Notes: a model not told the origin generated them from the sequence alone. A DNA stretch of 64,000 bases from a virus (IMGVR_UViG_3300031972_002122:1-64000), one strand, 5' to 3'. Positions 1,672-25,620 are shown, counted from the stretch's first letter. A program made the numbers and translations.

Positions 1672-2400
1672 GTGAAGTATAAGGATTATGATATTACTCG
1701 ATATATTGATTTTTTAAATGAGTGTACTGTTACCGATAATTGTAATATACACAAGCATCACATAATACCAAAATTTATGGGAGGTACTGATGATGTGAGT
1801 AATTTAAAAGAGTTGACGTATGAAGATCATCAAAATGCGCACATGATATTAGGTAAATGTTTTCCAACAGAAAGTCATTATTTTAAAGGTAACATACATT
1901 CGGCACAATTAATACAAAAATGGATAGATTATCCAAATGATGAGTTGCGAATGTTAATAAGTAAAGTACATAAAAATCGCGTGGTATCTCAGGAATCAAT
2001 TAATAAGATGGTTCAAACTAGACATAAAAATAACTCATGGAAACATAGTCCATGTACTAAGCGAACTATGTCATTAGTACGTAAAGGTACTAATATGGGA
2101 ATTAACAATCCGAGGTATGGTAAACAGGTGTCAACTGAAACCCGTGAAAAAATAAGTAAAGCAGTTTCTGGTAAATCTAATGGCATGTATGGGAGAAAGC
2201 ACTCAACTGAAACTATTGAAAAAATGAAAAAGAGCTTGATTGGTAAACGTTCTGGTTGGATGAATGGTAGATCACGTGCAGTCAAAAATGTAGAGACTGG
2301 TGAAATTTATAAATATTTGGGAGAGGCTTCGGACACGATGGGGATAAGTTATTATAAAATTAGAAAACTAATTAGTAGCGGGGCATTGATTTATATATGA
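1672..2400 (+). CDS. Free-standing HNH homing endonuclease with NUMOD3-type repeats
   Basis: HKHHIIPK.MGG.D...NL..LT..DH..AH HNH motif; repeated basic H/VS.ET..K.S and N.MYG.KHS segments; GTG start. Confidence 0.85.
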   Translation: MKYKDYDITRYIDFLNECTVTDNCNIHKHHIIPKFMGGTDDVSNLKELTYEDHQNAHMILGKCFPTESHYFKGNIHSAQLIQKWIDYPNDELRMLISKVHKNRVVSQESINKMVQTRHKNNSWKHSPCTKRTMSLVRKGTNMGINNPRYGKQVSTETREKISKAVSGKSNGMYGRKHSTETIEKMKKSLIGKRSGWMNGRSRAVKNVETGEIYKYLGEASDTMGISYYKIRKLISSGALIYI

Positions 2401-2956
2401 TCAAACTAACCGACATATTGCGTGAGGTTCTGAAGCGGAACATGATCACATCTTTCGATATCACGAAGGATCAGTTGAGTATGTTGGTACATGCGTCTAA
2501 GGATGAAGAGTATGAAGGACTTGGTATGGCGTATGGGGATTGGTTGGACGATGGTGCAACTCACGAAGAAATCGTCGATGATATGTGGAATTGGTTCTTT
2601 GAAAAGGATTTCCCAGAGGGCTTTAGAAATGTACCTGATCCGATTCCACTGAAGAGATATATAATGGCAAAGAGTGTAGACGATATTAATCTGGATGATA
2701 TAGGACAGTCTTGGTTTGCTACCGAGGGTGATGGATTCGATCAGGCACTTGCACATTTAGGTAAGGATCGAGATCGAGGTCACAATAAATTTATGATCAG
2801 CGCAGATGTTCCAATGCGTAATGTAAACATACCATATACGATAATGATCAGGAATATTAAATCGTATGAGAATGAGTTTGTTGTGGATAAACAGCAGGGC
2901 ATCAAAAATATTAAGGTAGAAGCTGTATGATCAAACTAACCGACATATTGCGTGAG
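2396..2956 (+). repeat. 31-bp perfect direct repeat TATGATCAAACTAACCGACATATTGCGTGAG at 2396-2426 and 2926-2956
   Basis: Read directly; each copy spans the start of a gene and encodes MIKLTDILRE. Confidence 0.95.
2397..2930 (+). CDS. Putative R-S-E ADP-ribosyltransferase-fold protein with N-terminal MIKLTDILRE tag
   Basis: PLKRYI ... IGQSW ... YENEF follows the R / S / ExE order of ART folds; N-terminal 10 aa identical to the next ORF. Confidence 0.5.
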   Translation: MIKLTDILREVLKRNMITSFDITKDQLSMLVHASKDEEYEGLGMAYGDWLDDGATHEEIVDDMWNWFFEKDFPEGFRNVPDPIPLKRYIMAKSVDDINLDDIGQSWFATEGDGFDQALAHLGKDRDRGHNKFMISADVPMRNVNIPYTIMIRNIKSYENEFVVDKQQGIKNIKVEAV

Positions 2957-3691
2957 ATACTCATCGAGAACGACTACGATGATTCCCAATACGACCGAAA
3001 TTACCTTGATCAACGGCGAGAAAGGCTAATAGCCAAAATACGTAAAGATGTTAAGGATTATATAGCTGCTATGGAAAAAAAGTATGGAGATTCATACTAT
3101 GATGAAATGTCTACAGAAGAAAAGAACATATATAGTAAATTGAATAAAATTGCATACGGAGATTCACGGATGCGTGGTTCGTTTTCGATGAAGGCAATCC
3201 ATCAGTGGACTATGGCACTTAAAAAATTACGAAAAAAATACCCAAATATGGATGGGATTCGTGGTGATATAAAGTCTAAATATGCATATCATTACACTAT
3301 ATATGACAATTTAGATTCTATTTTTACAAGTAACACATTGTATACAAGTGGTGGGTCGGTGTCATTAACTACTAATAAAGATTTGATGAAGCGTAAGCCA
3401 ACTTTCTGGTATGGGGCAGTAAATCATAAGACGTTGGCTGTAAAATTCGTTCTGGATTTGCAAAAAATAATTAGAGATGGATATGAAATTTTAGTTGGTG
3501 ATGATGACCTTGGGACTCTTGAGGGTGAGGAAGAATTGAGATTGCGTCGTGATTTAAAGAATTTACGTAAGTATATTGTGAAGGTGATTGTATATAAATC
3601 GAACATATCCAGTAGTGAGTTAAAATCTACAATCGACCTTCTTAAGCAGAAAAACATACCGTATTATATAAATACTCGAGACTTTGAATGA
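2927..3691 (+). CDS. Putative ADP-ribosyltransferase-fold protein (HxT...SLT...ExE) with N-terminal MIKLTDILRE tag
   Basis: YAYHYT...L.SI....L, VSLTT, V.FVLD..KI, EGEEE: ART-superfamily-like pattern in the C-terminal half. Confidence 0.55.
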   Translation: MIKLTDILREILIENDYDDSQYDRNYLDQRRERLIAKIRKDVKDYIAAMEKKYGDSYYDEMSTEEKNIYSKLNKIAYGDSRMRGSFSMKAIHQWTMALKKLRKKYPNMDGIRGDIKSKYAYHYTIYDNLDSIFTSNTLYTSGGSVSLTTNKDLMKRKPTFWYGAVNHKTLAVKFVLDLQKIIRDGYEILVGDDDLGTLEGEEELRLRRDLKNLRKYIVKVIVYKSNISSSELKSTIDLLKQKNIPYYINTRDFE

Positions 3692-3764
3692 TCAAAAAAC
3701 TATACTTATAATAAATAACAATTAGTTATCCTCGTGAATGGTTATAAATTAACTGAGGATTGAT

Positions 3765-3995
3765 ATGCCAAACGTAAATGAATTTAACAAAAAAATTGAA
3801 ATTAGTATTGGGGCGATTGCTTTTATTATTGCGATCACCTTCTCTGCGACCAAGATATATTCATCCCTCACGACTATGGAGACGCGGATGGATAAACGAT
3901 ATCAGCGGCACGAACAGCATTTCGAAATGCTCGACGAACGTGTGAACAATTTAGAGATCAGGTTTAACGACCACGAGAAGTGTCCAGATCGGTAA
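3765..3995 (+). CDS. Small single-TM coiled-coil protein (possible holin/lysis accessory)
   Basis: Hydrophobic ISIGAIAFIIAITFSA followed by a charged coiled coil; ATACTTATA motif and GAGG upstream. Confidence 0.4.
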   Translation: MPNVNEFNKKIEISIGAIAFIIAITFSATKIYSSLTTMETRMDKRYQRHEQHFEMLDERVNNLEIRFNDHEKCPDR

Positions 3996-4013
3996 TTAAA
4001 AGGGATATGTAAA

Positions 4014-4436
4014 ATGCTTAAGAACATTATAAAGGAAGTACTACAACTTTCAGAAGCTAAAGAAATAAAGAAAGATTCGTTCGAATATTTTTACATGGAC
4101 GAAGTGAAGGACATCGATAATATTAATGACGTCGAAGACTTAGGTGACCTTAAGAATGTTGAGGTATTTTTGATTACAGATAAGACGTATAAGAAAGATG
4201 ACCCCGGTACTGGTGAGTGGTTCAAAATCGACACCGAGAAGATTATAAAATATCTAGAGACATCGGTAGATAAATATTCAGCGGGTGATTATCTAGATTT
4301 TGGCGGATCGTTTACACTTGAGAACTGCCTTAATAAATTCATTGAACTAGAGTATGAATCTAAATGCTTTACCAATTGGGATGATTTCGTGGGTACGATG
4401 GACGGCGAAGTTGATAACGATCTTAATAAACTCTAA
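4014..4436 (+). CDS. Acidic hypothetical protein with N-terminal LKNIIKE..LSE tag
   Basis: ORF track; N-terminal amphipathic segment ending LSE. Confidence 0.6.
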   Translation: MLKNIIKEVLQLSEAKEIKKDSFEYFYMDEVKDIDNINDVEDLGDLKNVEVFLITDKTYKKDDPGTGEWFKIDTEKIIKYLETSVDKYSAGDYLDFGGSFTLENCLNKFIELEYESKCFTNWDDFVGTMDGEVDNDLNKL

Positions 4437-4446
4437 ATAAAAAGTT

Positions 4447-4941
4447 ATGATATTAGCAATCGATCCGGGTTGCACTGAATCTGGTTACGTTGTAGTCGAT
4501 ACCGACTATAAAGTTTATGAACACGGAGTTGTAAGTAATGGAGAACTCTTATCGATCGTTTCCGACTTAGTGAATACTAGAATAGATACAGTCGTCATTG
4601 AGATGATGACTAGTTATGGGATGCCTATTGGGAAAACCTCCATGGACACACTGGTTTGGGTTGGACGATATTTTCAAGCGGTACCGTTTAATAATGTTTT
4701 CCTGATGGCGCGGTCTAAAATAAAAAGACATCTATGTAATAATATGCACGCTAAGGATAAAAATATTACCGTAGCTGTTAAGAATAGGTACCAACCAACT
4801 GGTGGTGGTGCTGACCCATTTAAAGGGACAAAAAAACAACAGGGCCCACTCTACGGTCTTAAGTCCCACACATTCGCAGCACTCGCTGTAGCAATAGCTT
4901 ATATTGAAAATCCTGAATTAATTTACGATATGAGTAGATAA
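4447..4941 (+). CDS. RuvC-like Holliday junction resolvase
   Basis: MILAIDPG...G start, VVIE second acidic motif, RNase H-fold size. Confidence 0.75.
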   Translation: MILAIDPGCTESGYVVVDTDYKVYEHGVVSNGELLSIVSDLVNTRIDTVVIEMMTSYGMPIGKTSMDTLVWVGRYFQAVPFNNVFLMARSKIKRHLCNNMHAKDKNITVAVKNRYQPTGGGADPFKGTKKQQGPLYGLKSHTFAALAVAIAYIENPELIYDMSR

Positions 4942-4946
4942 TTTTG

Positions 4947-4954
4947 TATATTTG
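4947..4954 (+). promoter_or_regulatory. Bacteroidota sigma70-type -7 box (TATATTTG) 5 nt before the primase ATG
   Basis: Exact match to the TAnnTTTG consensus, intergenic. Confidence 0.55.
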
Positions 4955-4959
4955 CGCAT

Positions 4960-6009
4960 ATGAAGCATAAAATATTGTCATTGCTAATATCGATTCTTGG
5001 TGAATCGCATAACACTACAGGTGACAATCATTCGTTTCGATGTCCAAATTGTAATCACCGAAAGAAAAAATTAGAAGTTGACATATTGAAGGGGTTATGG
5101 CACTGTTGGGTGTGTAACAGAGGTGGTAAGAATTTTTTCTCATTATTAAAGTGGATTAAGGCTGGTCGAGATAAGATGGATTCACTCGAAACCATTCTCA
5201 AAACTAAGCGACGAATTTATGATTCTAAAAGTGAGTATGTTGAAGCTAGTTGTGATCTACCCAAGGAATTTATACCATTATGGGAAATGCATCCTGAAAG
5301 TTTTTTTTGGAGAGCTGCTATAAATTACTTAAAGTCTAGAGATGTTCATATCGGCGATATTCTGAAATATGGAATTGGTTATTGTGATTCTGGTGTATAC
5401 AAGAACATGGTCATTATTCCAAGTTATGATGGATGTGGGCAGTTGAATTATTTCCAGTCTAGATCATTCATACCGAATGCTAGGATGAAGTTTAAGAATC
5501 CGCCCGTGAAGCGGAATGTTGTAGGGTTCGAGTTGATGATCAATTGGGACGAACCGATTGTGTTGGTAGAAAGCGCATTTGACGCTATCACAGTTAGGCG
5601 TAACGCCATACCGTTATTCGGTAAATCTATACCTAAAAAGCTTAAACGGAGAATTATTGATCATGGCGTGAAGCAAGTCAATATATGTCTAGACGCCGAC
5701 GCAATATCAGATGCGATCAATCATGCTAGTTATTTTCTAGGTAATGGTGTGGAAGTCAAACTAACCGAACTGTCGGGTGAGGATGACCCATCCAGTCTTG
5801 GGTATGGCGAGATATGGAAAAAACTAAACAACGCTATTCAATTTGATGAAAGTGTATTATTTGAACGGAGAATAAAAGATCATTTAGATGGAGAAGGTAA
5901 AACGTATTTACCACGTAGGAGACATTCACTGTCGACTATTTCAACGGCACAGCGAGTATCGGGAAGTTTTCGACCGAATGTTCAACATAATCAGGGAAAC
6001 AGGTACTGA
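4960..6009 (+). CDS. DnaG-type DNA primase (Zn finger + TOPRIM)
   Basis: CPNC...WHCWVC zinc finger; VESAFDA and CLDADA TOPRIM motifs; DDPS motif. Confidence 0.85.
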   Translation: MKHKILSLLISILGESHNTTGDNHSFRCPNCNHRKKKLEVDILKGLWHCWVCNRGGKNFFSLLKWIKAGRDKMDSLETILKTKRRIYDSKSEYVEASCDLPKEFIPLWEMHPESFFWRAAINYLKSRDVHIGDILKYGIGYCDSGVYKNMVIIPSYDGCGQLNYFQSRSFIPNARMKFKNPPVKRNVVGFELMINWDEPIVLVESAFDAITVRRNAIPLFGKSIPKKLKRRIIDHGVKQVNICLDADAISDAINHASYFLGNGVEVKLTELSGEDDPSSLGYGEIWKKLNNAIQFDESVLFERRIKDHLDGEGKTYLPRRRHSLSTISTAQRVSGSFRPNVQHNQGNRY

Positions 6010-9004
6010 TGATGCTATAATTGTAGTCACTGGGGATATTGTTCATGGAAAGACTGATATGTCACCAGAGTTAATTTCCTTAGTATCTTATTTTTTCACT
6101 GGATGTGCGGATTTATGTACGACGTTGGTTATTGCTGGAAACCATGATTTTAATTTGGCAAATCCAAGTCGACTCGACGCATTAACACCGATCGTCGAAG
6201 CACTTAACCATGATAACTTAATATATTGGAAAGAATCTGGTGTTAAGACAGTTGGGAATGTTGCATTTTTTCATCACTCGATTATGGATGATGATTGGCA
6301 AGTTAACCTATCCAGTACGCTAGACCTCCCAGAACACGTGGATACTAAAATCGCACTATATCATGGAGCAGTTTCAGGGGCTACTACTGACATAGGATTC
6401 TCAGACTTTGCTGACGCTATCCCACGGAATAACTTTGATGCGTATGATATCACAATGCTTGGAGATATCCACAAAACTCAATACTTGGACGCTGACGAGA
6501 CTATAGCGTATTGTGGATCACTTATCCAGCAGGACTATGGGGAGCTACCAGAGCGAGGATTTTTACTTTGGGATGTACCAACACGGAAATCTACTTTCGT
6601 GTCCGTACCGAACGATTATGCGTACGTGACGATTAAAATAAATGGTGGGAAGATAATCGATCTTCCAGAACCACCACCTAAAGCTAGGATGCGTGTTATC
6701 CACGAGAATACTGATAAGTCAGTAGTTAAAGAAATTGTAGACAAAATAAAAGATCAATATTCGGTAAGTGAATTGCGTGTTACTGGAATAAAAAGTGAGA
6801 AATCACACCAAACTATTCAAGTTGATGATGTGATTAACTCTAGGAAGAGTGAAGTCCAAATGAAGTTGTATAGGGAATTTCTAGCTAATGAGGATTTAGA
6901 TGAAGACGTTTGGAAGGAGATTGATGCTATTAATAATGATCTAAATTCTCAAATACGAAACGTTGAAGTTTCTGGACGTGGAATAAACTGGATTCCGTTG
7001 GAATTTGAATTTTCAAATATGTTCTCGTACGGTACTGGTAATTTCATAGACTTCAGTGATATAGAAGGTATAGTTGGATTATTTGCACCTAACGCTAGTG
7101 GGAAATCTACATTGTTAGATTCGATTGTATTTTGTGTGTTTGATAAGTGTAGTCGGACTAGCAAGGCGGTCAATGTTATGAATAACCAATCTAGTGAATT
7201 TCATTGTAGATTCAAGTTTGCTATCGGTGACGAGGTATTTGAAATTATTAGAAATGCTAAACGTAACACAAATGGATCAGTTTCGGTTGCCGTTGATTTT
7301 TATAAAGGAGACGAATGCCTTAATGGTAAGCGGCGAGACGAAACCAATAAAATTATTCGAGACTACATCGGGACGTATGATGATTTTATACTAACGACAA
7401 TGTCAACCCAGAATGATAATCGATCGTTCATCGACATGACTAAAAAAGATCGCCAAGAATTATTGTATAGATTCTTGGACATTTACGTATTTATCGATCT
7501 GTTTAAATTAGCTAAGGAAGAGTCTAGGGATTTATCGTCACAAATTAAGTTACTTGGTGCCAATGATTTTAATCGAAATATTGAGAAATACCAGAATGAA
7601 ATAAAGATACTGAGTGATGAGTTGGTGATAGTTGACACCCAGATCGCTAAACTTACATCTAGCATCGATGAACTTACGATTGAGATCGAAAGTGCAAGTC
7701 AAAAAATGTATAACCTAGGCACTGTACTGGATATGGATGATTTGATTAGAGATCGTAAGCGAACCGTGGAGATGCTTGAAAGTGAACATGCGGCGATCCA
7801 GACCATAACTAATGAACTTGAAAGGGCTAAAAAAGATTTATCTGACTACACCGCAAAAAATCCAGTACAGGATGATACACCACTGACTGAGATGTTGGGT
7901 AAGTTAAATGATGCTAAGGCGTTAGTATTAGATGATAAGTTTAAACTCAACTCACTGCAGAAGGAACGTGAGCATTTACAATCTAAAGTTAAATCTCTAG
8001 ATACTCACGAGTACGATCCTAACTGTAAATATTGCGTACAAAATCCGTTCGTAAAAGATGCGCAAAAAGCTGAGAATCAGTTAGTTATAGTTAATGAAAC
8101 TATTTCTGAATTGGAGAAAAAGGTTATAGCTGAGGCTGAAATTGATCGCCGAATTACTACAATACAATCCCAACTCAGTGAACGACGCGCAGTTGTGGAC
8201 ACCATCGCAATATTGACTCGGGACTGTGAACGACAACAGAGTGGGTTAGACTTAGCCACATCTCAAATAAAAATAGTGGAATCCAAATTAGCACAAATTG
8301 ATGAAAACTTACAGAGATGTAAGAGTCAGCAAGCTCAGGTAGAGGAAAATGCAAAAATACAAGCTGAAATTTCTAGAACCCAGATGGCTAGAAAAGAACT
8401 ACAGGTTGAGTATTACAGTTTGGTTTCAGAGTCTAAGCAAAAAACTTCTGGGTTGAGTGCGCTTGAAGGTTCATTGAAGGGTGCACTTCAGGTTAAAGAA
8501 GACTACTTGAGGGCTACTAAAAAATATAAGGGGTACGAATATTTCATGAAGGCAGTTAATCGGGATGGTGTACCATACATGATACTTAAGAGGATACTCC
8601 CAGTTATTGAAAACGAGGTGAACGAGGTTCTGGAAGGTATTGTGGACTTTACATTCCAATTGAGTGTAGGTGAAAACGATGTCATTGAGGGGACTATACA
8701 GTATGGTGATAATCGATGGGCTATCGAGTTAATAAGTGGTATGGAAAGGTTTATCCTATCTATAGCTATTCGGAGTAGTCTCATACGATTGTCTGGACTT
8801 CCAAAGCCAAATTTCTTAGCTATCGATGAGGGGTTTGGTGTTCTAGATACTGACAAGTTAAATTCCATAAATATTTTATTCCAATATCTTAAGTCTCATT
8901 TTGATTTCGTACTTTGTATTAGCCACATATCAGAATTTAAAGATTATGTAGATCAACTTATTTCTATAAAGAAAATCGACGGGAGGAGCAAAATAACTTT
9001 GTAG
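5888..9004 (+). CDS. Fused Mre11/SbcD nuclease - Rad50/SbcC ATPase (gp47-gp46 fusion)
   Basis: GDIH, GD, GNHD, GDIH phosphoesterase motifs; Walker A APNASGKS; CKYC zinc hook in a coiled coil; SGMERF signature; LAIDEGFG Walker B. Confidence 0.92.
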   Translation: MEKVKRIYHVGDIHCRLFQRHSEYREVFDRMFNIIRETGTDDAIIVVTGDIVHGKTDMSPELISLVSYFFTGCADLCTTLVIAGNHDFNLANPSRLDALTPIVEALNHDNLIYWKESGVKTVGNVAFFHHSIMDDDWQVNLSSTLDLPEHVDTKIALYHGAVSGATTDIGFSDFADAIPRNNFDAYDITMLGDIHKTQYLDADETIAYCGSLIQQDYGELPERGFLLWDVPTRKSTFVSVPNDYAYVTIKINGGKIIDLPEPPPKARMRVIHENTDKSVVKEIVDKIKDQYSVSELRVTGIKSEKSHQTIQVDDVINSRKSEVQMKLYREFLANEDLDEDVWKEIDAINNDLNSQIRNVEVSGRGINWIPLEFEFSNMFSYGTGNFIDFSDIEGIVGLFAPNASGKSTLLDSIVFCVFDKCSRTSKAVNVMNNQSSEFHCRFKFAIGDEVFEIIRNAKRNTNGSVSVAVDFYKGDECLNGKRRDETNKIIRDYIGTYDDFILTTMSTQNDNRSFIDMTKKDRQELLYRFLDIYVFIDLFKLAKEESRDLSSQIKLLGANDFNRNIEKYQNEIKILSDELVIVDTQIAKLTSSIDELTIEIESASQKMYNLGTVLDMDDLIRDRKRTVEMLESEHAAIQTITNELERAKKDLSDYTAKNPVQDDTPLTEMLGKLNDAKALVLDDKFKLNSLQKEREHLQSKVKSLDTHEYDPNCKYCVQNPFVKDAQKAENQLVIVNETISELEKKVIAEAEIDRRITTIQSQLSERRAVVDTIAILTRDCERQQSGLDLATSQIKIVESKLAQIDENLQRCKSQQAQVEENAKIQAEISRTQMARKELQVEYYSLVSESKQKTSGLSALEGSLKGALQVKEDYLRATKKYKGYEYFMKAVNRDGVPYMILKRILPVIENEVNEVLEGIVDFTFQLSVGENDVIEGTIQYGDNRWAIELISGMERFILSIAIRSSLIRLSGLPKPNFLAIDEGFGVLDTDKLNSINILFQYLKSHFDFVLCISHISEFKDYVDQLISIKKIDGRSKITL

Positions 9005-9028
9005 TCGATATTTATAGTAAAAGTCTAA

Positions 9029-11575: not shown

Positions 11576-11583
11576 TTATTAAT

Positions 11584-13320: not shown

Positions 13321-13362
13321 TAAATTAACTGATACTTATTTATAAAAAGAGGATGTATACTA

Positions 13363-13944
13363 ATGGCTAAAAAAATGAAAAAAGAGCTAGAAGAAAGATT
13401 GCGTGAAGTTATTAAGAGTAAAATTCGGAGACTTCGAGAAGCACCAGTAATGCCTGATGAAGAGGAAGATGATGAATTTCAGCAAACTTCAGCTCCAGAC
13501 GTTAAAAGATCAAAGCCTGCGCCTGTAGATGGAAATGATTCCCAAGCACCTCAAGCTCCAGTCGAGCCGTCGAAAGCTGGATTTTCATCGGAACCATCAG
13601 CGTCCCCAGATGTGGCACCGTCTGAAGTACCGCCAGAACCAACATCGCCAGAAGTACCCGCGATGGATGAACCAGCGGCTGATGCTCCCGAGAGTGGTGA
13701 TGAAAAAATACGACAGGCTAAAGTTCGATTGTTTTTTGATAAAATGGCTGCCAATCCAACACTTATGAATTTATTGAAATTTACAAGTCCATTGGAACAG
13801 GCAGAAGCTATACATCAATTCGCTACTATGGTCGGTGTACCTAAAAGTCAAGTATTACCATTACTTAAGCAAATTAAAGACACGTCTATGGAACCAGAAA
13901 CTGATCCAAATCCTGTGGAGCGTGTAACACGAAGAAGAAGATAA
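13363..13944 (+). CDS. Pro/acid-rich hypothetical protein (possible internal head protein)
   Basis: N-terminal LREVIKSKIRRLRE followed by a disordered P/E/A/S linker; own promoter motif and GAGG. Confidence 0.6.
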   Translation: MAKKMKKELEERLREVIKSKIRRLREAPVMPDEEEDDEFQQTSAPDVKRSKPAPVDGNDSQAPQAPVEPSKAGFSSEPSASPDVAPSEVPPEPTSPEVPAMDEPAADAPESGDEKIRQAKVRLFFDKMAANPTLMNLLKFTSPLEQAEAIHQFATMVGVPKSQVLPLLKQIKDTSMEPETDPNPVERVTRRRR

Positions 13945-13945
13945 T

Positions 13946-14638: not shown

Positions 14639-14942
14639 TTATCGTAACAGACAGTTGGTGTGGATAGTTATCATACTTATTGTGTCACTTGGTGGGTATA
14701 TTTTAGCATTCTTTCAATTTAGGACTAATGCATCGCTAGCGGATCGGTTACTGAGTGATGATATGAATCGGATTGGTGTCATTGATGACGAATTATCAGC
14801 GATTAGGACGGATACGGCGATTACTATGGAAGAGTTGAAAAAGTCCCAGAATAAGATTAATAAACTTATCGAGGAAGCTCTTAAGCGTGATACTACTTCA
14901 CTCAATTTAGATGATGCGTTAAAAATTATAAATGAGTTATGA
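14631..14942 (+). CDS. N-terminal TM + coiled-coil protein (i-spanin-like)
   Basis: ATG at 14631 overlaps the upstream stop; LVWIVIILIVSLGGYILAFF TM then a heptad-rich region. Confidence 0.45.
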   Translation: MNNYRNRQLVWIVIILIVSLGGYILAFFQFRTNASLADRLLSDDMNRIGVIDDELSAIRTDTAITMEELKKSQNKINKLIEEALKRDTTSLNLDDALKIINEL

Positions 14943-15310
14943 TGCGGTTAATACTATTCATACTATTAATGCCCACGATTGGGATAGCACAGATAGATTC
15001 CACGGTGGTATCGATTCAAAGTATTATAAATGCTGCTGAGACGATAAACATGCAAAAAGATAGTATCGCGGAGTTGAACTCCATAATTGACGAGATGGTC
15101 AATGAAAATAGAATTCAATCTATATTATTTGAACAGCAAGCCGCAGAACTTGACCTGATGTCAAAACGGGTAGTAATTTCTGATGGAATAGTAGACCGAT
15201 ATTTGGGACATGTTGAACCTGATAAGTGGTTTGATAGACCAAATATTCGTTTTATGATTGGTCTGTTAACTGCATACGTATCATCACTCATATACAAAAA
15301 CATACGATGA
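14939..15310 (+). CDS. Secreted coiled-coil protein with C-terminal TM (spanin-like)
   Basis: Signal peptide MMRLILFILLMPTIGIA/Q, coiled coil, KWF..P then a hydrophobic C-terminus. Confidence 0.45.
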   Translation: MMRLILFILLMPTIGIAQIDSTVVSIQSIINAAETINMQKDSIAELNSIIDEMVNENRIQSILFEQQAAELDLMSKRVVISDGIVDRYLGHVEPDKWFDRPNIRFMIGLLTAYVSSLIYKNIR

Positions 15311-15319
15311 GGATGATGA

Positions 15320-16939: not shown

Positions 16940-16955
16940 TAATACTTATTATAAA

Positions 16956-18773: not shown

Positions 18774-18821
18774 GCTTTGATCATAAAAAGTAATATTTAT
18801 AAAAAACACGTTTGGTACAAT

Positions 18822-19661
18822 ATGAAAAAACTCAAGCACTCTAAGTATAAAAATACAGGAATTATATTCGAGATTTTGTCTCGAAATATAGTTAATGAGG
18901 TATTGAACAAGAAAAACTCTGTAAGTTTAGGAATGGTTAAGCGATATTTCTCGGAGGGTACCGAGCTATACAAAGAGCTTAAATATTATCAAACTTTGCA
19001 AGAGATCAATAAAAAGATTCGTAGGGTTGATAGCTTAATTGATGTCGTGATTGAAAGCTACGGAAAAACTATAAACCATGAAAAATTGGCTAGTGAGAAG
19101 TATCGACTGATTGGTGAAATTAAGAAGCATTACGATTTTGAGACTTTTTTCAATTCTAGAGTTTCTAATTATAAGTTATTAGCATCTGTGTACAAAATTC
19201 TGGAACACTCTGTGTCGGATAATCCGGGCGATTATATGAATTGTCGAGATGTTATCGCTGAACATATTAGCGGTGAAGATCAGAATGAAAATATATTAAC
19301 GGAAGTTCAGACTGTTTGGAAGACTGAAAACCCAGATATAAAAAGGTTAGCACAAAAAATTGTGGTTGAGAAATTCAACTCTAAATATCACGGATTGGGA
19401 TCGAAGCAAAAAGCTTTACTCAAGAAATTTATACATGAAGACGTGGAATCTACTAGTTTTAGAGATTATGTATACGGTGAAGTTTCTAATCTGAAAACTA
19501 AACTTACTCGAATTTCTAATGGCATTCAAAATAAAGTAATGCAAATTAAGTTGATGGAATGTATTAATCTGATGGATATTATCGTGTCGTCTAAATCAGT
19601 AAAGAACGAACACCTATCGTCTATGCTGAAATACTACGAATTAGTTGAGGAGCTATCATAA
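18822..19661 (+). CDS. Head-cluster protein (possible prohead core component)
   Basis: ATG at 18822 after ATATTTATA; KHSKYKNTG.IFE.L start; helical; lies between portal and protease. Confidence 0.6.
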   Translation: MKKLKHSKYKNTGIIFEILSRNIVNEVLNKKNSVSLGMVKRYFSEGTELYKELKYYQTLQEINKKIRRVDSLIDVVIESYGKTINHEKLASEKYRLIGEIKKHYDFETFFNSRVSNYKLLASVYKILEHSVSDNPGDYMNCRDVIAEHISGEDQNENILTEVQTVWKTENPDIKRLAQKIVVEKFNSKYHGLGSKQKALLKKFIHEDVESTSFRDYVYGEVSNLKTKLTRISNGIQNKVMQIKLMECINLMDIIVSSKSVKNEHLSSMLKYYELVEELS

Positions 19662-20356
19662 TGGGATTACTACAAATCATAAATGGAATTGATGATCGCT
19701 TTATCAACGAGGCTCAGGAAACATTCACAGTCGGCTATGAGCGAGACGGGAAGGAATATTCTCGTAATGTGAAGGCTAACAGTGAGTCTGACGCTAGGAA
19801 TAAATTTAAAGATATGATGGACGCCGATAACAATGACGTCAATGATTATAGAATTAAAGGTATTTTCAAAGCTACAGGGATGGACGAAGAGTTGGAGGAG
19901 ATGAACGTTACAGCTAATCTGGACGGTGGTGCTGGACAACCTAAAGTTCCTCACGCATTTCAGAAAAATAATCCAACTAAAAAGGATAAAGAGAAAGAAT
20001 ACAGTAATGCTACTAGTTCGACTGGATATGGTGTGGCACCCAAAACTAATAATTACATCAAGCGTCGAGATGAGATGTTTAATAGGGCTGAACATTTAAT
20101 TAATACCATTGATGAGGGTAAGTACACGGATTATCGTAATGATGATACTATGACACCTAAGAAGAAAATAAACACATCAATTAAAGAAGTGAACAGGCGA
20201 CTATATGAAATTGAGACTATGATTAACCATGCGATGCGTCTAAAGACTGAGACTGGTATGGAAGATGTGTTTTGGAAATCTACTAAGTCTAGATTCGCTA
20301 AAATATCAGAACGGATGCTTAGAATTGGAACAAAATTAAGAGAGTTTAATAAATGA
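19661..20356 (+). CDS. Head-cluster hypothetical protein
   Basis: ORF track; segments bounded by INE, LEE, IDE; helical C-terminal region. Confidence 0.65.
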   Translation: MGLLQIINGIDDRFINEAQETFTVGYERDGKEYSRNVKANSESDARNKFKDMMDADNNDVNDYRIKGIFKATGMDEELEEMNVTANLDGGAGQPKVPHAFQKNNPTKKDKEKEYSNATSSTGYGVAPKTNNYIKRRDEMFNRAEHLINTIDEGKYTDYRNDDTMTPKKKINTSIKEVNRRLYEIETMINHAMRLKTETGMEDVFWKSTKSRFAKISERMLRIGTKLREFNK

Positions 20357-20916
20357 GAAACTACCCTAAAGGAATGCAACCATTTGTAAGTATTGCGTTG
20401 AGGTCGGATAATGCACTAGATGCCTACCATGCTGCTAAGGGAATTAAAGGCGTATCAAAACAAGACGCAAAATGGTTTGGTGACACGTTTGGTCGGGGTG
20501 AATCTGGTGAGCGTGTGGATATGAAAAGGGCTTTCGAATTATTCTATGACGAAGTCCAGAAGGGTCAGTATGTTATGGAGGGTGAGCTCGAGCGAATTAA
20601 GGAGATAATCAAGGAAGAGTTGTTGAAGGAGCAGGTTGAGGATTATATCAAGGCGTATCGATCTTTCGATTCTACGTACATGATGAGTGACGATCCTAGG
20701 GCATATAGTAGTGGGAGAGCTCAGGAACAAAAAATAAAAGATATCTATAACAACTTGAGTGATGTTGAGAAACGTCAGGCGGCGATATGGTATCGGGATT
20801 ATTTTGTGGAGAATGATATGTGGAGTGGGAGTGATATGAACAGATCAGTAACTAGGTGGAGACCTGAACAGGATTTCGATCCAGATTCATTTGACGGGAT
20901 TCACTATAGAGGATAA
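20353..20916 (+). CDS. Two-domain hypothetical protein with IKEIIKEELLKE linker
   Basis: ORF track; C-terminal FD.TYMMSDD.R.Y..G domain. Confidence 0.65.
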   Translation: MRNYPKGMQPFVSIALRSDNALDAYHAAKGIKGVSKQDAKWFGDTFGRGESGERVDMKRAFELFYDEVQKGQYVMEGELERIKEIIKEELLKEQVEDYIKAYRSFDSTYMMSDDPRAYSSGRAQEQKIKDIYNNLSDVEKRQAAIWYRDYFVENDMWSGSDMNRSVTRWRPEQDFDPDSFDGIHYRG

Positions 20917-20922
20917 AATAAT

Positions 20923-21570
20923 ATGGCAAAACAATTATTAATTGAATATTTACCATTTACAATTAAGCCAAGCTTAATCAATGAGTCTACTGACCGTAAT
21001 GGTGGGCGTCTTATTGTTTCTGGGGTATTACAACGAGCTAATGCTAAGAATCAAAATGGTAGAGTATATCCACGTGGGATTCTTGAGAGGGAGATCACGC
21101 GATATATTGATACGGAAATTGCTCAAAAGAGAGCACTTGGAGAGTTAGACCATCCAGAAAGTTCGGTTGTGAACTTGCGAAATGTAAGCCACAATATATT
21201 GGAATGTGAGTGGGATGGTGATGACCTTATTGGTAAAGTAGAAATACTTGGTACGCCGTCTGGTAATATTTTGAAAGAATTATTTAAGGCTGGGGTTACG
21301 CTAGGTATCTCATCTAGAGGTCTAGGGTCTGTGAAAGAATTACATGAAAGTGATGGTACTGTCGAAGTCCAACCAGATTTCGAACTGATCACTTTTGATT
21401 TTGTATCAAATCCGTCTACCCACGGTGCGTTCCTATCACCAGTTGGTGAGAAGTCACTCGGGGAGGGAATGGTGAATGAGAGTATGATGAGAGAATTAAA
21501 CGAGTATGCCAAAGCAGAAACTTTGGTACGTGACATCATCTGCGAGCTATCAGGCGTGTGTTGTTACTAA
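20923..21570 (+). CDS. Prohead core protease (T4 gp21-like)
   Basis: NQNGRVYP, ALGELDHP (His), GISSRGLGS (Ser), DFVSNPS. Confidence 0.97.
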   Translation: MAKQLLIEYLPFTIKPSLINESTDRNGGRLIVSGVLQRANAKNQNGRVYPRGILEREITRYIDTEIAQKRALGELDHPESSVVNLRNVSHNILECEWDGDDLIGKVEILGTPSGNILKELFKAGVTLGISSRGLGSVKELHESDGTVEVQPDFELITFDFVSNPSTHGAFLSPVGEKSLGEGMVNESMMRELNEYAKAETLVRDIICELSGVCCY

Positions 21571-21586
21571 TCAATGAATTATACAT

Positions 21587-22378
21587 ATGAAATATTTAAT
21601 ATATAAAATAACAAACACAATTAACAGTAAAATATACATTGGGTGTCACATGACTGATAATGTAAATGATGGGTATATGGGGTCTGGAACTATACTTAAA
21701 AGAGCTTTTAATAAATATGGTAAAACAAGATTTAAAAAAGAAATACTTTTCGAATGTAATTCATATGAAGACATGATTTATAAAGAATCAAATCTCGTTG
21801 ATAAAGATTTTATAGAAAGGTCTGACACGTATAATTTAGTTACTGGTGGTATTGCGAGTAAAAAATATTCGAAAGATGTTATTGAACGAATGTCTGGAAA
21901 GGTTCCAGTCCTCGATAATCTTGGTTGTAAGTTTAAGGTATCGGTAGATGACCCTAAATATTTAAGTGGTGAATTGATACATACTAGTGTTGGGCAAACG
22001 CGAACTAAAGCAACTAAGAATAAAATTAGAAATAAAGCGATTGGGAGAAAAGTTAGTGAGGCGACGAAAAATAAAATAAGTGAATCTACTAGGGGTGAGA
22101 AAAACCATTTTTATGGTAAACGGCATAGTGCTGAAACTAAGAAACTTATTAGTAAGAATACTGTGGGTAGAACTCATGATTTTACTGATGACCATCGTAA
22201 AAATTTGAGTTTGGCTATGGTTGGAAATAAAAATGGCATAGATTCTACTCGGGGAACTATTTGGATAACACATCCCATATTAAAGAAGTTAAAAAGAATA
22301 CAACCAGTTGATTTATCTATATTTATTAATGATGGTTGGATACAAGGAAGAAAATTATGTCTGGTAAGAAAAAATTAA
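21587..22378 (+). CDS. Free-standing GIY-YIG homing endonuclease with NUMOD3 repeats
   Basis: LIYKITN.IN.KIYIG.H...Y.GSG..L..A..KYG...F.KEIL; NHFYGKRHSAETK repeats. Confidence 0.92.
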   Translation: MKYLIYKITNTINSKIYIGCHMTDNVNDGYMGSGTILKRAFNKYGKTRFKKEILFECNSYEDMIYKESNLVDKDFIERSDTYNLVTGGIASKKYSKDVIERMSGKVPVLDNLGCKFKVSVDDPKYLSGELIHTSVGQTRTKATKNKIRNKAIGRKVSEATKNKISESTRGEKNHFYGKRHSAETKKLISKNTVGRTHDFTDDHRKNLSLAMVGNKNGIDSTRGTIWITHPILKKLKRIQPVDLSIFINDGWIQGRKLCLVRKN

Positions 22379-22752
22379 GCCTATTATCACTGTACGAACG
22401 TGCTGGTAAGGATATGTTCGATAAGGAATTCGAATACACGAAAGAAGAGCGTGGTGCGTTCATGGAAGCCGTTAAAAACTACGAGGCGTATGGTGAAGTA
22501 ATTCGTGGGTCGGAAATGTTAGGGGAAACAATTAAAGAAATATCCGAGCTAGTTGAGTTGGCTGGTGGATTTACGTTGAAGGAAACCGATGGTTGGTTCG
22601 ATAATGTAACTGCGACTAGACACGTCAAGCAGATGAAGGAAGCCGTAAAGGTTCTCCAGAAGGAAGCTCAGGAAATCATGAGCCGTCAACAGCGATTGGA
22701 AGCGGCGTATGAAGATGTTGGATCATTATTAGGGAGATATTACGATGTCTAA
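22357..22752 (+). CDS. Head-cluster helical hypothetical protein
   Basis: ATG at 22357 with AAGGAAG upstream; DGWFD.VT..R..K, YED.G..L.RYY end. Confidence 0.7.
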   Translation: MSGKKKLSLLSLYERAGKDMFDKEFEYTKEERGAFMEAVKNYEAYGEVIRGSEMLGETIKEISELVELAGGFTLKETDGWFDNVTATRHVKQMKEAVKVLQKEAQEIMSRQQRLEAAYEDVGSLLGRYYDV

Positions 22753-24208
22753 ACGTGTGGGTGATGAAATTAAGACTATCAAGGGTAAGAGTTTGGGGGT
22801 TATTGTTAAGCAGGGTAAATCCAAAAAGCGAAAAATAGTTAGAGTTTTAAAACTAGGAAATCAATACAGAGTACAGTACGGAAATTCTGTTTATGATATA
22901 GATAAATCTGAGATTGACTCTGAATTCAATACATTGATGGGAGAAAATAAAATGTCTAAGAAAAAATTAAGTTTAATGGAGGCTTATTACTCATTACGTG
23001 GTAAGACTCTTAACGAATCTGGTGGTACACTTAACCGTGGTGATTTTGCTTATCGTATAGTTGATAGTAAAAACGGCAAGTATATGTCATTGTTCCATGG
23101 AACTAAAGGATCGCGTACAATTCCAGTTGGTAAGTGGGTTGATGCTGATGTGATGCAGGTTAAGAACCCGGGCACGTCTAAGAATTTTTTTAAATCTGGA
23201 TGGCATGTAACTCCAAGTTTTGAAGAGGCGGCTGGATATTTAACTAACTTCAGGTCTAAAGCTAGTGAAAAGTATGTACTAGCCAAGGTTCAGGTGGATG
23301 GCGAAATCCGTAGAAAGCCACGGTCTAGAGCCAATGTGTGGCTTGCTGAAAAAATGAAAATAGTTGAAATACTAGGTAGACCTACTGTTGAAGGTATCGA
23401 TGAGGTTAATGCCGCAGATGCTTACGAGTTGATGGACATTAGTCCAATCGATGGTGGTGATGAGTTTGGGCGTGAAGATGAAACTCGACGAGGTACTGTT
23501 GAACAGAGTGTCAATGAATCGGATAGAGCTGAAGACTTTGCACAGAAATATAACCCAGAATACAAATATATCGTTTTTATCGATGGGACTCCTAAATCTG
23601 GTTGGGAATACTTTAGAGATGCTATAACTGATGGAATCCTAGATAGTGCATGGGGATATAACGAGAGTGAACTGGAAGATGAGAATCCCGAAGCTTTAAA
23701 TATACTCAATCGAATATTTGACGAATTCGGTGATGATATCGGGTTGGAGGATTTTTCTGAAATTAACGATATGATATCTAGTTTTAACCGAGCCATGTCT
23801 CCTGACGAGAGTGATGATAATGTTCGGATAGAACCAGTACCCTCTAACTTTGGTGGGGATCGAGACGGTCAATACGAAAGTGTAAACAGTCTAGATGGAT
23901 ACAAAAAATTGTTTACTGAAAATCTAAATAGATTAAATTCTGTGGGTCATAATAAATACAACATGGTTCGTGAGGATTATAAAGGTTGGCGGAATCGTGA
24001 GACGTGGAATGTAGCGTTGTGGCTTACGAAAGATAGCGGACTACGTTCGGCGGCTAAAGAATTCAACGAATCTTATAGGGGAAATCAACCATATCGAGAT
24101 TTCATTCAGTACATTGGGTTGGCTGGTGAGCGGACTCGGGATGCCGTTGATTGGATCAATCCACAATTGGATTATAGTTCATTGAATAAAATGATGGAGA
24201 AAATATAA
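22745..24208 (+). CDS. Multidomain (polyvalent-like) protein with (L/I/V)xE linkers; possible internal start at 22952
   Basis: Distinct segments: ART-like AYR...SLF...GKW...SGWH; acidic linker; C-terminal YKGWRNRETWNVALW domain. Confidence 0.65.
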   Translation: MSKRVGDEIKTIKGKSLGVIVKQGKSKKRKIVRVLKLGNQYRVQYGNSVYDIDKSEIDSEFNTLMGENKMSKKKLSLMEAYYSLRGKTLNESGGTLNRGDFAYRIVDSKNGKYMSLFHGTKGSRTIPVGKWVDADVMQVKNPGTSKNFFKSGWHVTPSFEEAAGYLTNFRSKASEKYVLAKVQVDGEIRRKPRSRANVWLAEKMKIVEILGRPTVEGIDEVNAADAYELMDISPIDGGDEFGREDETRRGTVEQSVNESDRAEDFAQKYNPEYKYIVFIDGTPKSGWEYFRDAITDGILDSAWGYNESELEDENPEALNILNRIFDEFGDDIGLEDFSEINDMISSFNRAMSPDESDDNVRIEPVPSNFGGDRDGQYESVNSLDGYKKLFTENLNRLNSVGHNKYNMVREDYKGWRNRETWNVALWLTKDSGLRSAAKEFNESYRGNQPYRDFIQYIGLAGERTRDAVDWINPQLDYSSLNKMMEKI

Positions 24209-24639
24209 TGGAAGATTTTAAAAAAGATTCATTAATAGAAAATTATAATAGAATCGTTAGGGCTAAAAATAATCGTCTTAATGAGGCTGGGATGTTTTTT
24301 GGTCAGGGATTTATTAAAGAGAATAAAGTGTCTGGTGATGGGTTCGAAGCAATCGACCGTGGGGTTATATCTGGGTATGAAGAAGACAGTAAACTTGAAG
24401 GTGACGGCTTCCATGAGTGGGATGTTACTCTAAGTCGTCCATTGAATCTAGGTAACAATTACACTGATGACCATTTCGCGGAGGCATTGAAAGATGCTTA
24501 TGGTGATTCTGAGCTTTTAGATAATTTTCTAGAAACTGAAGTATCTCTGTCAGATACGATAAATTTTATTTACCGAGGAAATTACGGGAAACACAAAGAC
24601 ACGTGGGGTATGTCAGACCTGTCAGATTTCTTGAGATAA
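24208..24639 (+). CDS. Acidic hypothetical protein with N-terminal ...RLNE tag
   Basis: ORF track; LIENYNRIV...RLNE. Confidence 0.6.
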   Translation: MEDFKKDSLIENYNRIVRAKNNRLNEAGMFFGQGFIKENKVSGDGFEAIDRGVISGYEEDSKLEGDGFHEWDVTLSRPLNLGNNYTDDHFAEALKDAYGDSELLDNFLETEVSLSDTINFIYRGNYGKHKDTWGMSDLSDFLR

Positions 24640-24685
24640 TAATACATATATGAGTTTAAAAAATAATAGTTATAAAAAAAGAAAA

Positions 24686-24919
24686 ATGAGTAAGAAAAAG
24701 CGTGAGTTTTTATCAATCTCACCCGGGAATCCAACGGGTGTCGATGTAGTCGATGGTGATATAAATTATGCACTTAGGGTGTGGAAGCGAAATGTTAAGG
24801 ATAGCGGCATCATGTACGAGTTGTATAAACGTCGCGATTACACAAAACCAACGACCGCACGTAGAAAGGTGAAGTTGGATGCGATATATAAACAGCGAAT
24901 TGGGAGTAAAACTAAATGA
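24686..24919 (+). CDS. rpsU: Phage-encoded ribosomal protein bS21
   Basis: V.V.DGDINYALRVWKR.VKDSGI..EL..RRDYTKP...RR pattern of bS21; in-frame ATG at 24686 (ORF track starts 24650). Confidence 0.9.
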   Translation: MSKKKREFLSISPGNPTGVDVVDGDINYALRVWKRNVKDSGIMYELYKRRDYTKPTTARRKVKLDAIYKQRIGSKTK

Positions 24920-25221
24920 TAAATAATTCATCGAAAAAGTCTAAAAAGTTCTCGATGGCGAATGTCGCCAAATCTGTTATACATGATCTACCATTGAATG
25001 AGTATGGTGAGGGTCGTGAAGTTGACATGACATCGGACATTGGTAATACTTGGTTCAATCCAGAAGATATTACCAAAGATGTACTAGCATATTTGATGCA
25101 GGAGTATGAGAATTCTACTGAAGATAACTCTAAGATGAACGCTGATTTTATCGATATCGAAGATGCAATTAATGCTATGGAACGTGGTATTAAAGAATTT
25201 AGGAAGATTACTGGAGTATAA
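24916..25221 (+). CDS. Hypothetical acidic protein
   Basis: ORF track; N-terminal segment ending PLNE. Confidence 0.6.
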   Translation: MINNSSKKSKKFSMANVAKSVIHDLPLNEYGEGREVDMTSDIGNTWFNPEDITKDVLAYLMQEYENSTEDNSKMNADFIDIEDAINAMERGIKEFRKITGV

Positions 25222-25620
25222 ATGAAAATTGCTGAAGAGTATAGAAGATTGTTGCGTGAAAAGAAGATCAAGTACGACATGCAAAATGTCAATGGTGGAT
25301 TTTCAGGCGGTGTCGATATCGAGCCCGGACAACATGCTGGTGTGATGAACATATCAGTAAATATTTATGGCGGTAGTCAATCTACAGCACATGCGTATGA
25401 AGTGCCCCCAAGAATAAAAGAACTACAAGAAGCATTTATAGCGGCACGTCAGAAGGGCGATCCCGTAGCTGGTGAGCTCCATTCAGAACTCAAGGAATAC
25501 TATAGTAATCTAAAGCGTGCTATATCATTACACGTTGTAAAAGCTATGCAAATATTTGATCAACAAGCTAGTTCATCAATACAAGCAGCTATACAATCTA
25601 TCAACGCGAAATATCAGTAA
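25222..25620 (+). CDS. Hypothetical protein
   Basis: ORF track; GGAG upstream; MKIAEEYRRLLRE N-terminus. Confidence 0.65.
   Translation: MKIAEEYRRLLREKKIKYDMQNVNGGFSGGVDIEPGQHAGVMNISVNIYGGSQSTAHAYEVPPRIKELQEAFIAARQKGDPVAGELHSELKEYYSNLKRAISLHVVKAMQIFDQQASSSIQAAIQSINAKYQ

Follow-up and report, generated by a model that had tools for sequence, protein, structure and literature searches.

A virus record of 128,570 bp, whose first 64 kb (IMGVR_UViG_3300031972_002122, positions 1-64,000) are the window described here, comes from an uncultured marine phage that is a distant relative of T4, and in which unrelated genes begin with the same short peptide, a tag of 9-10 residues ending in (L/I)-x-E. 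Nearly all genes of the window lie on the + strand, as does every tag, cargo, leader, variable gene and head-module gene whose window range is written below with two dots; genes are named by their first nucleotide. The tag recurs in related viruses on many cargo families, mostly close to the gene for the prohead protease, and the favoured reading, with a probability of about 0.65, is that a T4-type capsid-targeting and cleavage system operates in a new lineage. For the injection of the cargo together with the DNA, confidence is lower.

The sequences themselves establish the tag, its portability, its association with the head module, its resemblance to T4 propeptides and the placing of the Glu exactly at the domain boundary; the chain of events that we infer comprises docking, cleavage, packaging and injection. 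An amphipathic N-terminal peptide of 9-10 residues (consensus M-I-K-L-K/T-D-L/I-L-x-E), or a longer variant with two sites, would act as a portable address that docks a protein into the prohead scaffolding core. The gp21-type serine protease encoded at 20923-21570 would cut after the glutamate, often again at a second h-x-E (h, hydrophobic residue) a few residues on, freeing the mature cargo in the head as the scaffold is degraded and the capsid protein sheds a propeptide of 57 residues; at infection the cargo would exit with the DNA. The predicted tagged cargos are those of genes 2397, 2927 (with a DarT/Tpt1-like fold) and 4014 in the window and of genes 111591 and 112225 outside it (genome coordinates), and the head-module proteins 19661, 22357 and 25222 bear leaders as well.

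The tag is best seen through a strict pattern, K[LIVM]x[DE][LIVM][LIVM]x[ED] directly after the start codon, applied to this genome and to 80 relatives' loci that were retrieved via the protease, not via the tag (849,331 nt, 1144 genes). It occurs at 31 annotated N-termini, after an internal in-frame start in six further cases and 16 times in protein interiors, compared with 0.09 N-termini expected from composition and a mean of 0.16 (maximum 2 in 300 trials) when residues 2-30 are shuffled. The same signal emerges from a motif-free test, in which at least six of the ten residues at positions 2-11 are identical in 492 pairs of non-homologous proteins; control windows give eight pairs (positions 31-40) and six pairs (positions 51-60). 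The reversed pattern has no match in any of the 11 records scanned. The protein statistics leave out the end of the record (genome 126800-128570), a region of low-complexity repeats with open frames on both strands, rich in G/D/V/M or H/I/S/T.

An earlier note on this DNA had taken a short amphipathic segment ending (L/I/V)-x-E as the distinguishing mark, and in that loose form the claim falls: the glutamate lies at positions 8-30 in 60 of 174 proteins (34%), which is the background frequency, since 29.4 +/- 3.0% of interior 25-residue windows contain [LIV]xE, and the motif occurs genome-wide at 0.0163 per residue against 0.0138 expected by composition. Its broader proposal, that unrelated domains share a portable tag at the N-terminus with (L/I)-x-E as its last residues, is borne out by the strict tag, which stands far above chance and on many cargo families.

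The 37 distinct tags have the consensus M-(I)-K-L-(K 26/37)-(D 30, E 7)-(L/I/M)-(L/I)-x-(E 34, D 3), in which, as far as the aligned tags tell, Leu4 is invariant, positions 7 and 8 are L/I/M and position 10 is Glu. Similarity among the tagged proteins ends right after the last Glu or Asp of the tag. Its codons vary synonymously (Leu TTA 21, CTT 8, CTA 5, CTG 1; Asp GAT 15, GAC 13; Glu GAA 25, GAG 7) and, because conserved positions use several synonymous codons, selection acts on the tag peptide and not on the DNA. A second h-x-E often follows 4-9 residues on, as in ILIE (2927), TLVTE (112225) and LINE (111591), and there is a longer class of two-site leaders, for example MK(I/L)TKSxLKE(I/M)IREE...xE, found 23 times at N-termini where the interior rate predicts 3.0.

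These properties bear on the simplest objection, namely that there is no system and that the tags reflect Leu/Ile/Lys/Glu-rich composition, AT-rich codons that favour initiation after the start, or recent local duplication. Such an account would suit the background frequency of generic [LIV]xE and the DNA-identical tags of 2397 and 2927, which a recent duplication would yield, but it has to contend with a strict tag that is about 200-fold or more above chance at gene starts, with amino acids kept through synonymous changes, with the empty reversed-pattern control and with the presence of the tag on at least 70 unrelated families and at least 129 viral contig stretches. For the strict tag it is already contradicted by the N-terminal, codon and pair-identity tests, and as a whole it is very improbable.

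In this genome, a scoring matrix built on the tag separates four clear cases (2397, 2927, 111591 and 112225; scores 17.4-20.3 against a null maximum of 7.6) from two borderline ones (104657, 9.2; 52769, 8.8), and this short-tag matrix does not set the other N-termini, including those of 24208, 13363 and 4014, apart from background. Gene 2397-2930 opens with the 10-codon tag MIKLTDILRE (2397..2426; matrix score 18.7), followed by a cargo of 167 aa (2427..2930). The cargo has two close homologues only, tagged MKKLTDILRE and MIKLTDILSE, and belongs to no Pfam or PHROG family; its AlphaFold model, made from three sequences, failed with a predicted local distance difference test score (pLDDT) of 51.7, and R / S-x-F-x-T / E-N-E motifs seen by eye in the sequence could suggest a second ADP-ribosyltransferase. 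The next gene, 2927-3691, begins with the same tag and a second site, ILIE (2927..2968), with a helix modelled over residues 4-11. The first 30 nt of 2397 and 2927 are identical, as are 12 of the first 15 residues, the remainder is unrelated, and the profiles of the two proteins align over the tag alone (17 columns). Directly upstream lies an HNH/NUMOD3 endonuclease gene (1672-2400), which overlaps the start of 2397.

Gene 4014-4436 represents the long-leader class: a two-site leader of 14 codons, MLKNIIKE-VLQLSE (MLKNIIKEVLQLSE; 4014..4055), which scores p = 0.054 with the short-tag matrix, precedes its cargo. Gene 13363..13944, with an N-terminal ...RLREVIKSKIRRLRE/AP leader (matrix p = 0.018), is a weak candidate; the peptide quoted for it in the earlier note, LREVIKSKIRRLRE, corresponds to residues 13-26, its two homologues cover the C-terminal part only, and one relative's unlinked open reading frame (ORF) begins similarly with MNEENLRKAIRTEIRRTLKE/AP.

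The two tagged genes outside the window carry enzyme-like cargos. The tag MKLIDILSE at genome 111591 precedes an S-adenosylmethionine (S-AdoMet)-lyase-like protein, which scores 27.1 bits against the S-AdoMet lyase family PF23780, just below the cut-off of 28 (E = 4.5e-6), and MKLIDMLIE at genome 112225 precedes a zeta/AAA_33-type P-loop kinase (Zeta_toxin 39.1 bits, cut-off 22.3; AAA_33 40 bits, cut-off 27; Walker A GGAGSGKT). Directly upstream of this second tagged cluster is an adenylosuccinate-synthetase-like gene (genome 109600-110748, L001:5601-6749) that matches phrog_1211, '2-aminooxy adenylosuccinate synthetase', at 1.6e-43 and Pfam Adenylsucc_synt at 2.4e-35; judged by these matches it may be PurZ-like, hinting at 2-aminoadenine DNA.

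The cargo of 2927 is a putative enzyme. Both the model and a fold search assign an ADP-ribosyltransferase fold to its domain at about residues 110-254 (3254..3691). The AlphaFold model has a pLDDT of 86.8 and a predicted template-modelling score (pTM) of 0.75; the top Foldseek matches in the PDB (1.3e-4 to 1e-3, probability 1.00) include Tpt1 (7yw4, 1.3e-4) and DarT (7omx, 2e-4); VIA-align gives Z 10.9 (110 aligned, root-mean-square deviation 2.7) and Z 10.0 (132 aligned, 3.5), and its top 29 rows are all of the ADP-ribosyltransferase fold. No Pfam ADP-ribosyltransferase family (DarT, PTS_2-RNA or other) is matched at E <= 0.01, and the modelled likeness to DarT and Tpt1 is at fold level only. 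A word-index search for homologues returned only the 2927 protein itself; relatives of the domain (about residues 90-250) came to light with an exhaustive HMMER search, 54 in all, and the proteins that contain them range from 91 to 4974 residues in length. Among 27 homologues retrieved, M(I)KL...h-x-E leaders begin most, and the alignment of 28 sequences has ten invariant positions: G113, Y121, H122, T124, I132, L153, D177, G200, E201 and E203. The modelled fold sustains the parallel that the earlier note had drawn with T4 Alt, in that a leader-bearing protein with a predicted ADP-ribosyltransferase fold is again encoded by a T4-like phage. T4 Alt belongs to the cholera-toxin-like group of ADP-ribosyltransferases, whereas the 2927 domain, in a protein of 254 aa, is nearest to DarT and Tpt1/KptA (Z 10-10.9) and not to that group (Z ~6).

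Portability extends well beyond this genome. In IMG/VR, a degenerate DNA scan for MIKLTDIL(R/S)E turned up nine more loci, where the tag begins ORFs with at least four unrelated bodies, among them a homologue of the 2927 cargo and a homologue of the 112225 kinase. Together with the protease-anchored set, these loci give 46 tagged genes in 26 cargo families. A second scan, for MIK(L/F)KD(L/F)(L/F)xE, matched at least 129 stretches of viral contigs, and the 80 loci retrieved from these contain 82 distinct ORFs, of which 79 have at least 50 aa and form 44 cargo families; for 77 of the 82, an in-frame stop is present no more than 18 codons upstream of the ATG. Searches of 27 representative cargos in Pfam and PHROGs yielded nothing informative except the kinase. 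The number of tags in a single relative varies: four in a complete record of 145 kb, five in one fragment of 29 kb, one in Flavobacterium phage immuto (MIKLIDLLTE, in the gene starting at record position 24977), and 12 in a T4-like relative of 296 kb, where they mostly mark paralogues of one family. In the last of these, an array of at least nine tagged genes (L225, G001:C1:206500-217500) mostly reads MIKLKD(I/L)LLE-GKPxxIFVPRRMEDRVERMI, then leucine-rich-repeat-like text. The strict pattern has no match in phages HTVC008M and Melnitz, where the kinase leaders are other variants.

The claim of a delivery system far larger than T4's fails for this genome, whose set of four strict tags, one long-leader gene (4014) and a few head-module leaders is roughly T4-sized, T4 itself having IPI-III, Alt, gp67 and gp68. 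The large tag repertoire belongs to the clade and not to this phage.

Gene order links the tag to the head. The protease-anchored loci reach up to 8 kb on either side of the protease gene and contain 32 tagged genes, of which 30 are found on the same strand as that gene, at 1.4-5.8 kb downstream; one of the other two is between the portal and protease genes and one is upstream. The slot downstream of the protease is also the place of the variable genes 22745, 24208 and 24916 of the window, mixed with conserved genes.

A second line of evidence is the junction between leader and domain. The 112225 kinase cargo was found in six distinct versions, whose leaders of 8-17 residues differ in sequence: MIKLTDILSE; MIPFILKE, before GLYDP, in gp129 of the cultured Pelagibacter phage HTVC008M; MKTFAELQE, before GVYDP, in gp118 of the cultured Methylophilales phage Melnitz; and MKLIDMLIETLVTE, MIKLKDLLMENIDE and MIVWNDSVQNDGTVISE. 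In all six the last three residues of the leader are h-x-E, and the conserved G(V/L/I)(Y/R/N)DP follows at once. Leaders that differ and yet end in h-x-E at the domain boundary show the behaviour expected of a removable propeptide.

Head-module proteins show comparable junctions. The conserved protein of 22357..22752 (leader MSGKKKLSLLSLYE; homologues in 38 loci) belongs to a family in which [LIVM]xE precedes the conserved domain by at most 12 residues in 37 of 37 members, some of which bear the short tag itself (MKLKKILKE, MAKLKDLLSE). In the family of 25222..25620 (leader MKIAEEYRRLLRE/KKIKYDM, with RRLLRE13; homologues in three loci), hxE lies 0-3 residues before the conserved KI(K/R)YDM in four of four members, and one relative's copy begins MKIKLTDILKSKLLTE. 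The conserved protein encoded directly before the protease gene (19661..20356, with FINE17; homologues in 36 loci) is a candidate prohead-core protein, gp67/gp68-like by position: most members of its family begin with a leader holding hxE within 30 residues, then the conserved TGNxDGGxGPPKTP, and in the window protein this motif comes after ELEE80.

The scaffold and capsid proteins carry sites of the same kind. The gp22-like acidic scaffold (25760..26731; homologues in 26 relatives' loci) has 18 [LIV]xE sites in 323 aa and the N-terminus MSKSSNLLQE/AIADA; across 23 sequences this N-terminus is kept as M-x-(D/N)-L-L-K-E/AIADAK, which resembles the second half of the short tag. The gp23-like capsid gene (26751-28397; PF07068, 4e-74), whose product shares 57% identity with that of Microcystis phage Mel-JY01, 53% with that of Flavobacterium phage immuto and 35% with that of Rhodothermus phage RM378, includes the predicted maturation site QLVTE57 (26907..26921), and the Pfam Gp23 match begins at residue 68. 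The suggestion that QLVTE/A marks maturation holds up, as all 16 clade sequences have hxE, in the form QL(V/I)xE, at the corresponding alignment column, where T4 has FLTE65/A. The presumed protease (20923..21570) is likewise confirmed as a gp21-type Peptidase_S77 (PF03420, 8.8e-30), with the N-terminus MAKQLLIE8; it is 34% identical to T4 gp21 over 147 aa, and the alignment pairs its H77 and S130 with H85 and S140, the catalytic residues of T4 gp21.

T4 provides the template for these comparisons. In the T4 record, IPII and IPIII begin with MKTYQEFIAE/A, IPI with a leader ending ...ITE19/A and gp24 with MAKINELLRE/S; gp21 begins MNEPQLLIE9 and gp22 MLKEQLIAE/A, and gp23 has FLTE65/A. The passages of PMC9026906 on T4 maturation state that gp21 cuts after L/I-X-E, that the first 10 residues of IPIII are enough for incorporation, and that in this capsid-targeting sequence (CTS) residues 4 and 7 are needed for targeting and 8 and 10 for processing, which an Asp at position 10 blocks; according to the same passages, Alt is processed by gp21 at both termini, and the CTS may be an evolutionary route by which T4-like phages package varied proteins. 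T-even internal proteins are described in the relevant part of PMC3012670 as diverse defence proteins with only the CTS in common, and the T4 CTS is reported in passages of both sources to package foreign proteins (PMC9026906, PMC3012670).

The tag shares with the T4 CTS and the gp24 propeptide a leader of 9-10 residues at the N-terminus of unrelated proteins, hydrophobic at positions 4, 7 and 8, acidic at position 6 and ending in (L/I)-x-E with Glu at 10. Its constrained L4, L/I7, L/I8 and E10 coincide with the IPIII positions, a parallel in sequence only, and within a 50-kb T4 segment the clade tag pattern picks out the gp24 propeptide MAKINELLRE and one interior site only. The surrounding machinery is also of one kind, in that the phage encodes an S77 protease of the gp21 type, a gp22-like scaffold with many sites, and a gp23 whose hxE/A maturation site is conserved. 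The differences are that the tag reads MIKLKDLLxE here and MKTYQEFIAE in T4; that relatives have most of their tagged genes inside the head module, past the protease gene and ahead of the scaffold gene, while the ip genes of T4 are found in other parts of the record; and that here one hxE is often succeeded by another, the position behind the Glu is variable and the system is known from sequence alone.

Giant phages offer a further precedent. In phiKZ, 201phi2-1 and SPN3US, a gp21-related protease cuts ejection-protein propeptides after Glu, as the sections of PMC5694885 and PMC9026906 devoted to them report; as in the tagged families, paralogues there share an identical N-terminus (15 residues) and a propeptide may hold several sites. 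By the same sections the giant-phage motif is S/A-x-E or A-x-E and most propeptides exceed 100 residues, whereas the leaders here have a length of 8-22 residues and, like those of T4, L/I/V at P3. Judged by title and start of abstract, the papers listed for 'capsid targeting sequence' or 'capsid targeting signal' concern T4 and its applications, SPN3US, P1, P22, the activation of cyclic oligonucleotide-based antiphage signalling systems (CBASS) by phage proteases, and DNA modification, and no application of the idea to uncultured or to marine or aquatic phages was found among those titles and abstracts, nor did the phrase occur in any paper listed when it was combined with marine-phage terms. 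No occurrence of the tag strings was found in the literature, in a search that most subscription journals lie outside.

Several observations weigh against a capsid-targeting system. The residue after the tag Glu varies (K, A, V, S), unlike the Ala or Ser at the T4 sites read. Amphipathicity is modest, with a helical hydrophobic moment of 0.45 for tags and 0.36 for controls, and in the 2927 model the first ten residues are predicted as a helix at low confidence (pLDDT ~61). Gene starts are longest-ORF calls made in this analysis. The four strict tags of this genome sit outside its head module, and the T4-type late-promoter motifs neither mark its tagged genes nor are enriched (TATAAATA, 12 against 9.6 expected; CTAAATA, 17 against 20.2). 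Among long tag-bearing records, the gp23 gene is present in 5 of 10, most of the others being fragments, and the S77 protease in 2 of 5 tested. One record of 207 kb, with a completeness rating of 100%, carries four tagged genes side by side, yet neither a gp23 nor an S77 protease could be detected in it, the latter also not with a clade profile built here, and the same is true of an HK97-type capsid and an S78 protease; either its head genes are too divergent for the profiles or the tag works without a T4-type protease. The tagged genes of this record (L224, G002:C1:101500-107500) are immediately upstream of a gene of 764 aa. The literature yielded no proteomic, cleavage or packaging data on this phage or on any relative.

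Some of these points would be accommodated if the tag were a real portable module with another purpose, independent of the protease: a helix for oligomerisation or assembly, an address for tail, baseplate or membrane, or a stability signal. The 207-kb record, with its tagged genes and without detectable T4-type or HK97-type head genes, fits this idea, as do the un-T4-like residue after Glu and the predominance of one family's paralogues among the tagged genes of the 296-kb relative. It is nevertheless unlikely, given that 30 of 32 tagged genes in the protease-anchored loci adjoin the S77 protease gene, that the tag pattern matches the gp24 propeptide of T4 and shares its layout with the IPIII CTS, that the Glu falls exactly at the domain boundary in every family tested, and that the phage's own scaffold begins with a related xDLLKE/A peptide.

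Entry into the prohead and cleavage need not entail delivery, and the tagged proteins might instead be assembly helpers that are degraded or expelled like the scaffold. The families of 19661 and 22357, conserved, acidic and in the positions of T4 gp67, gp68 and gp22, look the part, and most cargos have no enzymatic domain recognisable in Pfam or PHROGs. Yet the ADP-ribosyltransferase fold, the zeta/AAA_33-type kinase and the S-AdoMet-lyase-like protein are enzyme-like cargos without an obvious assembly role, their bodies contain few hxE sites compared with 18 in the scaffold, and the cargo families change fast between relatives, as T-even internal proteins do according to the part of PMC3012670 on their diversity; that the tagged proteins are such helpers is distinctly improbable.

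Should the tag function as its T4 counterpart does, sequence alone would suffice to list the proteins that a large, mostly uncultured aquatic group of phages carries in the head and delivers as infection begins. Such proteins are prime candidates for anti-defence or host takeover, the role that IPI* and Alt play in T4; here they would be the putative ADP-ribosyltransferase-fold protein, the kinase and the S-AdoMet-lyase-like protein. A broader reading is put forward tentatively, at somewhat under even odds: the tag and its variants would be a sequence-readable capsid-loading code of a very large aquatic T4-like clade that includes HTVC008M, Melnitz and immuto; the slot between protease and scaffold would be a site of cassette exchange that captures cargos via the tag; and the cargos, among them a DarT/Tpt1-like enzyme dependent on nicotinamide adenine dinucleotide (NAD), a zeta-type kinase and an S-AdoMet-lyase-like protein, would be injected as first-strike takeover or anti-defence effectors. 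If it were true, the injected proteome of uncultured marine phages would be predictable from nothing but sequence. It might also be possible to load foreign proteins by means of the tag in marine phage systems, as is done with the T4 CTS, and the cultured relatives HTVC008M, Melnitz and Flavobacterium phage immuto make the idea directly testable.

A T4-type large terminase gene (15320, by profile match) is followed by the gp20 portal gene (16956; PF07230, 1.6e-69) and, after it, by a conserved head-module gene (18777..19661) with homologues in 74 relatives' loci. A GIY-YIG/NUMOD3 homing endonuclease gene (21587-22378) forms an insertion immediately behind the protease gene. A gene for ribosomal protein bS21 (24650-24919; PF01165, 2e-12) lies inside the head module, past the protease gene and ahead of the scaffold gene, and has homologues in the same place in 30 relatives' loci; the window copy has a basic N-terminal extension of about 30 residues and is without an h-x-E leader. 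That phages encode bS21 is already reported in the relevant part of PMC6375957.

Leaders had also been listed for the variable genes of this region, and their support is uneven. All of the peptides quoted in the earlier note are present where they were said to be, and family alignments back the peptides of 22357 and 25222 as well as those of the scaffold and the capsid site; others belong to proteins without homologues, and two, of 20353 and 22952, are internal and not N-terminal. In the variable gene 20353-20916, which has no homologue in relatives' loci, the quoted IKEIIKEELLKE comprises residues 82-93 and is part of an internal leader-like segment, MEGELERIKEIIKEELLKE (residues 75-93; 20575..20631), that closely resembles the N-terminus MKITKSKLEEIIREELLKE of a relative's gene. 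The peptide at 22952, MSKKKLSL...TLNE, starts at Met70 of ORF 22745..24208. This variable gene of the cargo slot encodes 487 aa, with DUF7249 at the C-terminus (PF23907, 7.7e-13) and the internal sequence MSKKKLSLMEAYYSLRGKTLNE at that methionine. Before Met70 there are 69 codons (22745-22951), and the MSKKKLSL... that follows resembles the N-terminus of 22357, MSGKKKLSL..., a pattern that a fused small ORF or a mis-set start could give. No homologue of 22745 was found in relatives' loci, or of its residues 70-300 among shorter database proteins. Its LFHGTKG was considered as an ADP-ribosyltransferase-like motif and rejected (probability 0.14% against the 2927 family profile, and no PDB sequence match at E <= 5). 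The variable genes 24208..24639 (SLIE11, RLNE26; matrix p = 0.014) and 24916..25221 (PLNE29), also in the cargo slot, have no homologue in any relative's locus, and for their RLNE and PLNE chance or composition remains the best account.

Away from the head module, a single ORF of 1038 aa (5888-9004) codes for both an Mre11-like phosphoesterase (Metallophos, residues 6-195) and a Rad50/SbcC-like ATPase (AAA_23, SMC_N) in one chain, functions that T4 keeps as the separate proteins gp47 and gp46. The start of this ORF overlaps the end of the primase ORF (4960-6009) by about 120 nt.

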